The notes under the pieces: generated by a model | What the model saw: only the letters and a program-made list of their open reading frames with translations | What the model was told of the DNA's origin: nothing | Databases searched by the model: none | Program-made: the position numbers and the translations under genes | Source of the DNA: Eledone cirrhosa | Lineage: Eukaryota | Length of the DNA: 64,000 nucleotides | NCBI GenBank assembly: GCA_964016885.1 | Contig: OZ024742.1 | Location: forward strand, 50,964,001 to 51,028,000 | Direction: 5' to 3' | Shown: positions 8,165 through 49,060 of the stretch, one piece after another | Numbering within the stretch: the stretch's first letter is position 1 | How the letters are laid out: each line of letters starts with the position of its first letter

Positions 8165-9483
8165 CGATTATAAAGGAAATGAATACAAAGACTTTAAAAC
8201 CGTTAAAACATGTTTATATAATTGTACACCTACGTACGTTTCGCCCTGAGCGGAGTTATCAAGGGCATGGAAAGCAAAATAATGTTCAATATAGCACCGA
8301 GGAGGGAATTTATGGTTAAATTAACATCATCATTCACAGTAAGATTAACAAAACACTACACCTTAGCGCAGATAAATCTAGACATGACAACAACACAAAT
8401 AACCTTAATATCCCCCTAACAGCACCAAATAGGGTGGATGGCCGCCTCGGCAGACGAAACCCACGTAACCAGGACGTGATTGGAGAATATACCGGCGACC
8501 CACACGCGTCACCCACCGGCAGCAGAACGGGCTGTGGCGTGCGGAATAATACTGGTACAACACCGCACGCCTTGAGAGATAACAGTACCAATGACGGAGC
8601 TAGAGACATAGTTAACAACCTAGATAGCAATAATAATAGCTCTACTTTAGGAACTAGGAGCGAGCGTGACGGAAAATGGAACTGTCGTGACAAGGGAGGC
8701 TGCCCTGTCAGGGGAAACTGCCTGACTGATAAGGTTGTTTATAGGTGCACCGTAACTAGCCATAGCGGAGTTAAACACTATATAGAAGCCACCGCATCTC
8801 CACTCTTTCAAGAACAACAAATTAAGGCACTCCACATCGCTTGCCAACTACGTCACCAAATGCCAGCTCTGCTTCATGGAGCTGTACTACATCATAAGAA
8901 CACCCCATGAGCTCTTAAATAGCCGAGCAGAATCAGTTATTAATTGTAAACACCGGGTACAGACGTCGTATTTTGCCTGTGAGGCGACTGTGACATGAAA
9001 ACTACGAATTGGGTCCTCCTGCCCAAACCATAACACCCCGGTGGGCACGCACTATGAACAAACATCTGTTAACCAATTGTACACTGCAGACCATACTCGA
9101 ACAAGCATTAGTGAAGCAACATCCACTAAATAATAAATGGACACTCCAGACCCGACCTGTACTGGCACTAGTGAAACAACACACATAATATAAAGATGCT
9201 AAACACCAGCATATGAACAGGCATTAAAATCCACATGGGACTGATTTCTTGAACGCCGGCCAGAGTTGCTCCCCCTGCTCTGTGATAATAAAAACACATG
9301 CACAAAGGGGAAAATGAATGATGATGTTAAATTAACCGTAAATTCCCTCCTGGGTCCTATATTGAACATTATTTTGCTTTCCATGCCCTTTTTTTAAAAC
9401 CAGCTCAGGGCGAAACGTACGTAGGTGCACAAATATATAAACATGTTTTAACGGTTTTAAACTCTTTGTATTCATTTCCTTTA
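8165..9483 (+). mobile_element. 5'-truncated Hydra-type PLE with inverted pseudo-LTR copy
   Basis: A GIY-YIG fragment at about 8680-8960 reads NCRDKGGCPVRGNCLTDKVVYRC...YIEAT. 8170-8340 and 9312-9483 are inverted copies carrying a decayed HHR (GAAA-cgtacg-TA). Confidence 0.75.
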
Positions 9484-10112
9484 TATATATATATAAAATT
9501 ATAAGTTTGAAGAACAGTCAGACAAAATATATCCAATTTTTCATCTCCTTAGTACGTAGAAATTAACTAAATAAATAATCATTTAAACGGAGCTAAGTTT
9601 AAAATGTAACTTTGAAGACATAACAGATAAATGTTACACACCATCCTCTGTGAGGAACAGTCAAATAAAATTTACCTAGTCTTTCCTCTTAGCCCGTAGA
9701 AATTAGCTAGACAAATAATCAATTAAACGGAGCTAAGTCTAAAGAGTAAGTTTATAGAAAAAATGTATATAAACTTCAACAAAATTCTTCTAGTCCCGAT
9801 TATCGACAGTTTCGCTCGTACTTTGTGGATATGTCCAATCCTGCTATTATCCATGAGGTTTCGAGCTTTTCAAGAGACTCCCTCAGTTAAAACTAACATT
9901 TCTACAGTGATCGCTACATATATATATATATATATATATATATATATATATATATATATATATATATAAATATAAGTATGTATACGTACATACATACAGA
10001 CGTACAGTAGTAGTTATATATATACATATATGCACACATATATATGTACGTATGGATTCAACGAACATTTATTATAATACTGTCAGACGTTCAGTCATCT
10101 GGCAGGAAGGTA

Positions 10113-10157
10113 AACGGTGCTGACGATAGCTAATAAGCTTGAAACTAGTACATCGTT
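10113..10157 (+). ncRNA. Minimal type I hammerhead (family D, copy 1)
   Basis: aacggtg-CTGACGA-t agct aata agct t-GAAA-ctag-TA-catcgtt. Confidence 0.85.
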
Positions 10158-10540
10158 CCTTTGTCAGTGTTGAACAAAAGGTCAACGATGGTTGCTAAAC
10201 ACTGTACGGCTTAATTCGGGATATTTGTTTGCAAACAAACCGAACATTATAATAAATGTTCGGTGAATCCATACGTACATATATACATGTGTGCATGCAT
10301 GTATATGTATACATACTACTGTACGTCTGTATACATATATGTATGTACGTATACATAGTTATATCTAAGTAATAGCCGTACTAAGAGTGAGAACTGAAAT
10401 TTCGTTTCATTTTTTCCATTTATTGTTTTCGGTGCGCCTCGTCGATAACTCACTCGATATGCAAATTAGGCTGCTTAGCCGTTAATATGCATAAGGAAAG
10501 TATATACTTTCAGACGTTCAATCATCTGGCAGGAAGGTAT

Positions 10541-10583
10541 ACGATGCTGACGATAGCTAATAAGCTTGAAACTAGTATATCGT
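10541..10583 (+). ncRNA. Minimal type I hammerhead (family D, copy 2)
   Basis: acgatg-CTGACGA-tagctaataagctt-GAAA-ctag-TA-tatcgt. Confidence 0.85.
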
Positions 10584-11079
10584 TCCTTTGTCAGTGTTGA
10601 ACAAAAGGGCAACGATGGTTGCTAAACACTGTACGGCTCAATTCGGGATGTTTGTTTACAAACAAACCGAGCATTATAATAAATGTTCGGTGAATCCATA
10701 CGTACATATATATGTGTGTGCATGCATGTATATATATACATACTACTGTACGTCTGTATACATATATGTACGTACGCATACATAGTTATATTTAAGTAAT
10801 GGCCGTACTAAGAGTAAGAAATGAAATTTCGTTTCATCTTTTCCATACATATATATATATATATATATATATATATATAATGTAGGAGGTGAGTTTTATT
10901 GTAGTTGTATTATGTATACTCCAGTCCTACAAACTGTAGAGTGCTTCTTATCCGATATCTGCATTGCTTTATTGTACTACAATAAAACTCACCTCCTACA
11001 TTAACGTGCTCCTTAACGGTTGAGCGCTTACTCTCATATTGGTTACCTTTTGATGGTCCTTCACCTCTTCTTCTACAAC

Positions 11080-46305: not shown

Positions 46306-46569
46306 TTAATCTGTTATTTAAATAAATATTTGCTCTTCGGTCCTTATATATTTGATATATATTTTCCTTATCGAGCCCTCTCTGGATTTTAGTCTTCAAT
46401 GTTATTATTATTACTATATATATATATATATATATATATATATATATATATATATATATGTAAATATATATATATATACATAATATACATATATATATAT
46501 ATATATATGTGTGTGGGGGGGGGGTATATATATATTATTAATATGTATTGAATATATATATATATATAT

Positions 46570-47160
46570 ACATGAAAGGATAACAAGGACGATTAGTTAC
46601 TCCTTCATTACATTTATTGGTAGGTGACGCGCGTTTCGCCACTGATCAGCTCAAGGTTCGATCTGTATCGATCTTACCCGACTCTATAAGTGGCAGCTTG
46701 AGGGAACCTTTAAAGTGCTATAAGAAAATGAATACATGCTATATGATAAAGTCAGAAGTTCATGTGTTGGTCAATATGAATTGTTTTGGTTGGAGGAATA
46801 TATCATAGGGATGTATTCACCTGTAGTGTATGTTGGGGTGGATGTGATGATAAGATGTTGGTGACGGTCGCTGGCTGTGTTGGGCTGTGGTGTGGTGGTG
46901 GCGGATTGACTTTCACCTGTAGTGTCGTGTTGGTGGATGTGAAGATAAGCTGGTGGTGACGGTCACTGACTGGGATGGGCTGTGGTGTTGGGGTGATGGA
47001 TCGGTGGTAGACCAATTGGCGTATATTTGTAGCTGATTATTGTGTGTGGTGAGGGTGTGGTGTTGTTGTTTATGGTAATGGCGTTTTTGGTGGTGTAGTG
47101 GATGTGTTGTTGGTGTCAATTCCATGGGGAGATACATACCTAGACACTCTTGGTCTGACA
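46570..47160 (-). mobile_element. PLE 3' remnant with half hammerhead
   Basis: Minus strand reads gccact...agtggc-GAAA-cgcgcg-TC-acct, with the CTGA core decayed. An SPHGID-like endonuclease tail lies near 47115. Confidence 0.45.
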
Positions 47161-47552
47161 AATACGTTGTATACATATACATGCTTATATATACTGACAT
47201 ATATACACATACATACTTATATACAAACACATACACACGCACACATACACCCACATATACATATATTTATATGCATATTCACACACATGTATGCATGCAC
47301 GCGTGTGGATATATATATAGAGAGAGGGGAGTAACAGTGGGGGAGGCGTAGTTCATAGATAGAGGGGGGTGAGAGCCAATGGAGATGGTGTTGTACATAT
47401 AGACATACACATACATACACTGATTCTCTTTTTTCTGTGATACCATACTCTGCTCTACGAGAGCATCGAGTGCTCATACGGCCTACCGCATACGGACGCT
47501 TTAAGAATCCAACAGCAGTTATATATATATATATATATATATATATATGAAC

Positions 47553-48868
47553 ATGATCATAATCATGATCATCATCATCAACATCATCATTTTACGTCCG
47601 CTTCTCCTTGCTTGCAAAGGTTGGACGGGTCCTATTCAGCACAGCATCTCTCCACTTGTCACGGTCCTTCGTCATCTCCTCGTTGAGTTTCAGCGATCTG
47701 AGGTCTGCTGTCACCACCTCCGCCCATGTTTTACGTGGAAGACCTCAACAGCGTCTTCCTTCTACTGGGATTTCTTGGCACTTCTTTACCCAGCGGTCAT
47801 CGTCTATGCGCATCACATGTCCATACCATTTAGCCTTCTCTCCTGCACACCATAACTTATCCCTCTTATACCTAGTTTCCTTCTCAACTCGTCTATGTTT
47901 GGTCCTTCACGCATACTTGCTTCATTTCTCTCTAGCCGTCGCATATCCTCAGCAGATGCTGTCCATGTTTCACTACCATGCAGCATCGCGCATCTCACAT
48001 AGGCATCATATAACCACCCTTCCGTAAGCAGGGAGAAAACCTTCTTTGTCAACAAAGGAAGCAGCTCCCTAAACTTCTTCCAACCCGTCCTTATTCGAGA
48101 TAATATGGCCTCGGCATGCCCCCTCCCATGCTAATTTGATCACCCTAGGTACCGGAAGCTATCAAACACTTCTATAGAATCCACCTGCATTGGAAAAATG
48201 TGTCTATCACTGCGATTACTACTGCCAACACTCCCTGTACATTTACTGCATACGTAATTTTCCCTACCTGTTAGTTTGGCTGCTATCCCACTACATCTCT
48301 TGTGTACCCAATATCTGCATTGCGTACATTTTATGGAATTTATGCCAATTCCTTTCCTACATATCGAACATGGCCATTTCCCTGATGGAATCGGAGTATT
48401 GTCCTCTCTTCTATTTATCAACAATTTTGTCTTAGCTATGTTCACTCTCAGTCTTCTTGATTCCAACTGATGTTTCCATAGCCAGAATTTATTCTCTCGC
48501 TCCTCTACTGATTCTGCTATACGAGCTAGATCATCAGCATAGAGAAGTTCCCATGGGCATCCAGTCTTAAACTCCTCTGTTATGGCTTGGAGGACTATAA
48601 AGAACAAGAGCCGGCTGAGGACCGAACCCTGATGTACACCTACTTTTATCTGGAAATCCCCACTAAACACCACACTTACTCTCATTTTACGGACAGCACC
48701 ACCGTACATACCTTGCACTGCCCTCACAAGCCATTCCTCTACACCTAGTTACCTTAGGGACCACCAGATGACAGATCGGGGTACCCTATCAAAGGCCATC
48801 TCTAGGTCAACAAAAGCTAAGTATAGTGGCTTATTCTTCTCTAAGAACTTCTCTTGTAGTTGCCTCAC
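47553..48868 (-). mobile_element. RTE-clade LINE 3' portion (RT) with (TGA)n tail
   Basis: AFVDLEMAFDRV, GVHQGSVLS, WELLYADDL, CTQCRYWVHKRCSG, FRYLG, MLHGSETW. An (ATC)n tail is on plus at 47553-47590. Confidence 0.9.
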
Positions 48869-48885
48869 TATATATATATATATAT

Positions 48886-49060
48886 TTAATATAGAAATCG
48901 CTTCTACAGGACTAGAACTGTTTCAGACTTCCTGACGATTTCTCCCGAATGAAACAGTTCTAGTCCTGTAGAAGCCATTTCTATATTAATTATTTATACT
49001 CTGCTTTGTATTGAGTACCTTACCTACAGTGGTTACCCCGATTGAACCCGGGATAAACTT
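48886..49060 (+). mobile_element. Tail-out pseudo-LTR element with HHR at 48928-48974 (family M)
   Basis: cttc-CTGACGA-t ttc tccc gaa t-GAAA-cag ttctagtc ctg-TA-gaag. A short inverted arm spans 48886-48924. Confidence 0.8.

Follow-up and report, generated by a model that had tools for sequence, protein, structure and literature searches.

Two-armed insertions in the window

The stretch analysed here (the window) comprises 64,000 nt of the 3.0-Gb assembly of Eledone cirrhosa and contains many (TA)n runs, TA-bounded inverted repeats and broken reading frames of Penelope-like elements (PLEs). The inverted repeats are two-armed insertions of coding PLEs and of non-coding repeats with hammerhead ribozymes (HHRs), whose families are designated by letters (Table 1). 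Genome loci of nine families, 1.30 Mb in total, were fetched in addition; these loci (L numbers) were mostly selected as family matches and are not a random sample.

An initial annotation of the window had described a "tail-out" architecture, in which the 3' ends of both arms point outwards to the (TA)n. This polarity was found in all seven elements for which it had been listed, with an HHR core or its remnant on the plus strand in the right arm and on the minus strand in the left arm. The arms within these elements are 91-100% identical, and the open reading frame (ORF) independently sets the sense in families B, G and K. A strict HHR scan yielded 21 matches in the window versus 0-1 in 10 shuffles. 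Three HHR cases are weaker: the left arm of 48877-49059 has the GAAA half only, 8016-9483 has a decayed core in its right arm, and family B has a CAGAAGA core. The family G element, thought to start at 8165, is indeed two-armed, but its correct start is 8016, because 8016-8168 is the 153-nt tail of the family, present in about 12 other copies. Three further elements had been said to share the polarity. This holds for 9967-10846, in which two intact plus-strand HHRs had been missed, and for 15165-15681, where the tail is the sole cue because no convincing HHR was found there in the HHR search of the window. The third, 18803-20118, fits the polarity poorly and is discussed below.

Table 1. Insertions and broken PLE reading frames in the window (RT, reverse transcriptase; EN, endonuclease; UTR, untranslated region)
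Feature	Coordinates	Strand	Remarks
Family G, left arm	8016..8336	-	outer end at long site, 153-nt tail; HHR remnant near 8231-8270
Family G, right arm	8337..9483	+	Hydra-type EN remnant, 3' UTR, decayed HHR; short-site end; arms non-nested
Family J, retrozyme-like	9967..10846		112-nt minus arm (short site); 1.8 tandem 427-nt units on plus, HHRs at 10120 and 10547, end at long site (about +55)
Family E, two-armed	14678..15116		minus arm short site; plus arm 95-nt tail; HHR remnants in both arms
Family H, palindrome	15165..15681		135-nt tail on one side only; polarity by analogy
Family K, Neptune-like, C-terminal EN, 5'-truncated	18891..20118	+	short-site end
Family C, two-armed	20178..20738		HHR on minus (20279) and on plus (20531); right-arm tail ~94 nt
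Family D, 317-nt unit	22573..23480		minus arm long site (tail ~36 nt); plus arm 1.8 units, two HHRs, short-site end
Retrozyme R, left arm	38256..39111	-	856 nt of 485-nt HHR unit; end at unit position 240 (short site)
Retrozyme R, right arm	39109..40906	+	3.7 identical units; end at unit position 343 (long site); 3-nt microhomology at central joint
Family B, long arm, Hydra-type PLE	43285..45878	-	broken RT and EN frames, 3' UTR, HHR variant 43346; short-site end
Family B, short arm	45875..46415	+	541 nt, HHR variant 46260; long-site end, 86-nt tail; not contained in long arm
Family F, mini insert	48877..49059		short minus arm with HHR GAAA half; plus arm with intact HHR (48932) and tail
Broken PLE frame	8320-8910	+
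Broken PLE frame	11017-13264	+
Broken PLE frame	18931-19398	+
Broken PLE frame	45914-44377	-
Broken PLE frame	62322-61675	-

Orientation of the arms across the genome

Opposite-strand neighbours of one family were tallied in all fetched loci. Among pairs without a TA run at the joint, 130 were tail-out and one was tail-in. Where a TA run lies at the joint there were 2 tail-out and 9 tail-in pairs; these are separate copies, because TA lies between them. (TA)n flanks were present in nearly all loci examined. The tail-out layout is thus real, but it is not new: head-to-head PLE copies that have a tail on one side have been published before (Arkhipova 2013; Craig 2021).

Two fixed end sites and their pairing

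Every family has two fixed end sites, a short and a long one, at a distance of 36-153 nt (R 103; B 86; G 153; K 45; C ~94; E 95; D ~36; J ~55; H 135). Family K has an additional end about 20 nt beyond its 45-nt site. The two outer ends of an insert are therefore two different fixed sites and not duplicates of one 3' end, a point that the initial annotation had missed. Exact short-site ends number 299 genome-wide for retrozyme R and 9,606 for family B; the abundance of these elements in this genome is very high.

In an automated count of families B, C, E, F, G and K, 61 pairs combined a long with a short end, five were long+long and two were short+short; 27 more pairs had one end assignable to neither site. 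Mixed pairs (61 of 68) compare with at most 50% under independent site choice (p=4e-12). This pairing rule does not depend on which end anchored the search, since hand tallies gave 23:1 and 29:1. For retrozyme R, 39 loci from a best-hit search contained 21 one-armed copies, of which 16 ended at the short and 5 at the long site, as well as 18 two-armed ones, 15 of which pair site 240 with 340-346, none being alike and three having an off-site end. A second set of 40 stretches, ordered along contig C1 at short-site ends, contained 10 distinct two-armed inserts, all mixed, as well as one insert with an arm of ~10 nt and one odd case (L153). Together with two extra mixed pairs (L103 and L109), retrozyme R provides about 27 mixed pairs and none alike, and no inverted 240 partner was found within 10 kb among 100 of its 299 240-ends. 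The first 30 short-site ends of family B on contig C1, where several long inserts extended past the locus, gave 14 resolved two-armed inserts, 13 of them mixed and one alike. Either arm can carry the tail: in some copies it is the longer one, in others the shorter one.

Because the outer ends lie almost always at two different fixed points, copying from both sides of the DNA cut is likely. Twin priming in the strict L1 sense would place the second primer anywhere that TA can pair on one linear RNA and would yield arms that abut without overlap. A few inserts do abut or almost do so (L165, L170, L185, L070), and TA-rich off-site ends occur rarely (L032, L055). However, the second end is found at one fixed site despite many TA-rich spots in the RNAs, and most arms overlap widely, which makes this route highly improbable.

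Nesting of the arms and common source

A published alternative is self-priming, in which a single primed cDNA folds back on the antisense template (PMC3846280, Discussion) and the tail results when the EN trims the intermediate; EN-mediated resolution is also the source of the tail given in PMC8557442. An arm made by fold-back must lie within the first arm, so this cannot produce the 24 of 61 mixed pairs that are non-nested, i.e. in which the upstream end of the short-site arm lies at least 10 nt beyond that of the long-site arm and the short-site arm has no tail. Both coding inserts of the window belong to this set, and in six inserts (L167, L168, L185, L070, L109, L150) the arms have no sequence in common. 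The position of the tail on either the longer or the shorter arm also speaks against it. The remaining 37 pairs are nested and do not alone exclude fold-back. As the sole route, self-priming is refuted by the non-overlapping arms, and we regard it as very unlikely, although some nested copies could still arise in this way.

The arms of one insert share their source. In retrozyme R, which has two main haplotypes of about equal frequency, the haplotype is identical in both arms in 14/14 informative inserts, and private variants are common to both arms in the R insert of the window, L051 and L053. In 44 of 54 pairs the two arms are more alike than the family mean. Together with the one-of-each ends, the 130 central joints without TA, the variable arm lengths and the divergence of the arms in old copies, the shared private variants make it extremely improbable that the inserts are two unrelated adjacent insertions, MITE-like (miniature inverted-repeat transposable element) DNA transposons or fold-back artefacts of the assembly. 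Separate insertions do accumulate in TA runs, as the nine tail-in pairs with intervening TA demonstrate, and they probably explain 18803-20118. Both ends of this element are short sites, a TA-rich spacer separates the 53-nt left piece from the body, and the left piece is ~92% similar to young family K copies that are themselves 98-99% alike. For these reasons 18891-20118 is probably one-armed and the inverted piece 18803-18856 a separate older copy. Arms of differing age, which the initial annotation had named as an argument against its reading, were thus found in one of its ten examples.

Central joints

Microhomology at the central joints exceeds chance. In retrozyme R its mean is 1.64 nt versus 0.72 nt expected (n=25, p=1e-4; 6 joints with extra bases or unclear are omitted), and in family B 1.59 versus 0.66 nt, in 29 of 41 joints. 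HHR cleavage was considered as the origin of the inner ends of R arms and rejected, as 1/106 lay within 2 nt of the cut, which is the chance level. R inner ends also cluster at 135-161, but with scanning taken into account this cluster lacks significance (p=0.075). Contigs from three sequencing runs contain loose TA ends at both sites; these contigs are too short to cross a joint.

Some individual joints deserve mention. The R inserts L051 and L129 have different haplotypes and an identical central joint (unit 48/447), at which there is an imperfect match of ~8 nt. Of 105 inner ends of family B arms (loci L157-L186), 19 cluster 150-162 nt ahead of the long site; this hot spot coincides with the 5' edge of the HHR motif and is perhaps a transcript start. 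At L110:1508-2200 an R arm passes directly into family C in the same orientation, by template switch or by insertion into a C copy.

Identity of the elements

Natural copies of family B contain a single ORF with an RT (YRDD) followed by a C-terminal GIY-YIG EN; full-length relatives encode ~720 aa, and the element is ~3.26 kb long. On a visual match of motifs to available passages of the supplement of PMC8557442, family B is probably a Hydra-clade PLE. Motifs of these C-terminal EN+ PLEs (Hydra-1_Obim, Hydra-2_Amil) are shared by families B and G and the ORF at 11017. DKT is present in family B instead of DKG, and the family differs from the clade by RWC for RWK and by its HHR, which keeps the fold but has the CAGAAGA core and an A at U4 (window 46260, 43346; loci L157-L186). 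In the EN frame of L163 we recognised by eye a CxCx5C linker, no CCHH, and CxxC and CxH around E and N residues. Like other EN+ PLEs, family B inserts at (TA)n; its terminal 19-mer had no match in the available part of the supplement. The frame at 11017-13264 (plus strand) is a near full-length broken Hydra-type ORF with an asparagine-rich stretch ahead of the EN that resembles the N-rich inserts of rotifer PLEs (PMC3846280). Family K (L224, L229) has an RT (YVDD), a C-x4-C-x2-C linker and a C..C..H..H EN, and by these motifs is likely a Neptune-like C-terminal EN PLE; it may be a Nematis element instead. Pfam gave no RT match for the PLE frames of the window and a weak GIY-YIG match on another window frame. 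In Rfam no hammerhead family was among the matches listed (150 of 166), which were of low complexity.

The R array of the window contains six HHRs, with a type I HHR per unit, and no ORF of 100 aa. Retrozyme R is non-coding, consists of tandem units and has dispersed copies, as do non-LTR (long terminal repeat) retrozymes. Private variants are fixed in all units of single R loci (window, L050, L053, L058, L059, L061, L068), which would be compatible with one monomer having been copied repeatedly, a circle being the simplest case; a monomer circle is the template that we would favour for retrozyme R, if with reservation. Periodic variants in L039, L048, L057, L064 and L066 had been considered as a sign of rolling over circular multimers. 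This was rejected: the pattern breaks in L039, L057 and L064, which makes later block duplication the better fit, and the variants were not used as evidence. The arrays of these three very young insertions seem to contain duplicated blocks of 3-4 R units, forming a higher-order repeat.

Coding PLEs of two clades (Hydra-type and Neptune-like) and non-coding HHR repeats thus leave the same footprint, which supports the earlier proposal that coding and non-coding elements use one mechanism.

Primer pairing and RNA signals

At the outer ends, 1-4 nt match TA. The initial annotation had proposed to measure microhomology at outer ends and central junctions, and it was found at both. The end was shifted to position 346 in 6 of 14 copies without a TATA match versus 0 of 17 with such a match (p=0.004). 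Primer pairing thus tunes the end site, and the allele without the TATA match spreads its ends. A CTC...GAG stem lies downstream of 6/14 sites versus 2.9% in the background, in a post hoc test, and families B and R have a near-identical stem of this kind past the long site. Full-length family B arms in L162, L179 and L183 start 12-17 nt past the long site; these starts lie inside the downstream stem, just ahead of the ORF start.

A model of insertion by priming from both strands

In our reading each two-armed insert is one Penelope-type insertion into (TA)n with its outer ends at two fixed sites, and it is likely that both cut strands primed reverse transcription, one per site, after which the complementary DNA (cDNA) ends annealed and were filled in. 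EN would nick both strands within (TA)n, and each 3'-OH would pair by a few bases at one of the two RNA sites, which would be set by downstream structure. Two RT sites would then copy toward the 5' end of the RNA, and a few bases of pairing would join the cDNA ends before they are filled in; if the second end is not extended, a one-armed copy would result. We lean towards two RT active sites, probably in a dimer, that are positioned by RNA signals just downstream of the end sites. Whether both arms are read off one RNA molecule or off two molecules of one source is an even question, for which variant register and arm length offered too few informative cases. Two-ended copying might even be the normal PLE route, in which an asymmetric RT pair on one RNA uses two signal-marked sites, one per cut strand, and copies linear PLE transcripts as well as hijacking ribozyme circles; this generalisation we regard as possible rather than probable. 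If it is true, the tail, the inverted pseudo-LTR and the spread of retrozymes would follow from one mechanism, i.e. target-primed reverse transcription without separate priming of the second strand.

Several points weigh against priming from both strands. The pairing rule is not absolute, because 7 of the 68 scored pairs are alike-ended (e.g. L183/184, L235, L258). The similarity of the arms could be partly due to gene conversion, or to old copies that depress the family mean. Unmatched bases (1-6) are present at 12 of 41 family B joints, the CTC...GAG stem is absent at 8/14 sites, and target-site duplications are unreadable within (TA)n. At the 5' joints of one-armed copies the TA microhomology is not significant (mean 1.19 versus 0.89, p=0.10). 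In work on the PLE Poseidon (PMC11167929), start sites for the top and the bottom strand did not differ and no homology between primer and RNA was seen, as opposed to the 1-4 nt TA match in the Eledone families.

In the long-array set of retrozyme R, moreover, the inner ends lie within 121 nt in phase in 11 of 18 inserts (p=0.001), so fold-back may shape some centres. A hybrid route, in which both ends are primed, one cDNA folds back, a sense strand is made and this anneals to the other cDNA, would account for these short offsets and for the near-perfect hairpin centres in families C, E and H, and it would retain both the two-site rule and the shared haplotype. However, the second set of R inserts lacks this offset bias (2 of 12), and the route is inapplicable to arms without overlap; we therefore judge it unlikely compared with direct joining of two cDNAs.

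Other features of the window

Two additional tail-out two-armed inserts, absent from the initial annotation, are located at 49328-49441 and 62512-63191. A separate copy at 62267-62456 lies opposite the latter across a TA run, which results in a 98% tail-in palindrome. Other HHR-like or tandem elements terminating at TA runs are found at 5592-6637, 3031-3524, 36717 and 7747, and a non-LTR retrotransposon RT fragment with a PHD-finger match at 48140-48748 (minus strand).

Comparison with known systems

In the twin priming of L1, as reportedly described by Ostertag and Kazazian in 2001, the second target strand primes a second cDNA and the inversion is joined by microhomology; one arm is said to start at the poly(A) end and the other at a variable internal site, and the arms abut. 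The Eledone inserts share with L1, at the level of the footprint, outward-pointing outer ends, priming by both strands and microhomology at the joint, but both of their internal sites are fixed and their arms overlap in most cases. The initial annotation had invoked twin priming. Non-nested arms, the two-site rule, central microhomology and the shared haplotype bear it out in so far as both target ends would prime and the products join in the middle; it does not apply in the strict L1 sense, since the arms mostly overlap on the template rather than abut. The pairing rule and the non-nested arms define a specific variant of twin priming, which probably applies to PLE enzymes in general and to the retrozymes that these carry.

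The Poseidon protein PAc has been shown in vitro to cut and extend both strands (Frangieh 2024, PMC11167929). Its RT starts at two internal RNA sites that are the tail ends, near the ORF start, and a dimer is predicted. Poseidon belongs to a different clade, and in the available passages of that paper the two sites are not tied to two strands or to inverted arms. The one-of-each rule is a sharp prediction for this existing in vitro system.

For metazoan non-LTR retrozymes, an origin from PLEs or mobilisation by them has been proposed (PMC7229834; bioRxiv 10.64898/2026.07.22.740005). Like these, the Eledone repeats consist of non-coding units in tandem, each of which contains one type I HHR (unit lengths: R 485, J 427, D 317 nt), the units of R and J being longer than the 170-400 nt quoted. 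The words "inverted" and "integration" are absent from the available text of PMC7229834, whereas in Eledone the insertion footprint itself matches that of PLEs. This footprint is evidence that PLE enzymes insert animal retrozymes, a link formerly argued from sequence kinship.

The closest match is to EN+ PLEs (Arkhipova 2013, PMC3846280; Craig 2021, PMC8557442), with which the inserts share the inverted 5'-truncated copy at the 5' end in head-to-head arrangement, the tail at one end, the HHR in the terminal repeat and the (TA)n targets. Tails of 36-153 nt in the Eledone families compare with 30-40 nt in published elements. PMC3846280 describes the inverted pseudo-LTR with an optional tail, states that head-to-head copies are the commonest and puts forward self-priming on an antisense template as their origin; the same structure is drawn in PMC8557442 (Fig. 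2), which leaves the origin of the inverted repeats and of the one-sided tail open. Both treat the tail as optional, via self-priming or EN resolution, which differs from our reading with two priming events. Neither one-of-each pairing nor counts of non-nested arms occur in the available passages of these papers, and no statement of the one-of-each rule was found in the literature searched, which was mostly outside subscription journals and in part available as excerpts. The layout itself is known; the new part is the pairing rule together with the non-nested arms, on which the published self-priming proposal fails. Because each outer end lies at its own fixed site, copying from both sides of the cut would explain the long-known, unexplained layout of PLEs.

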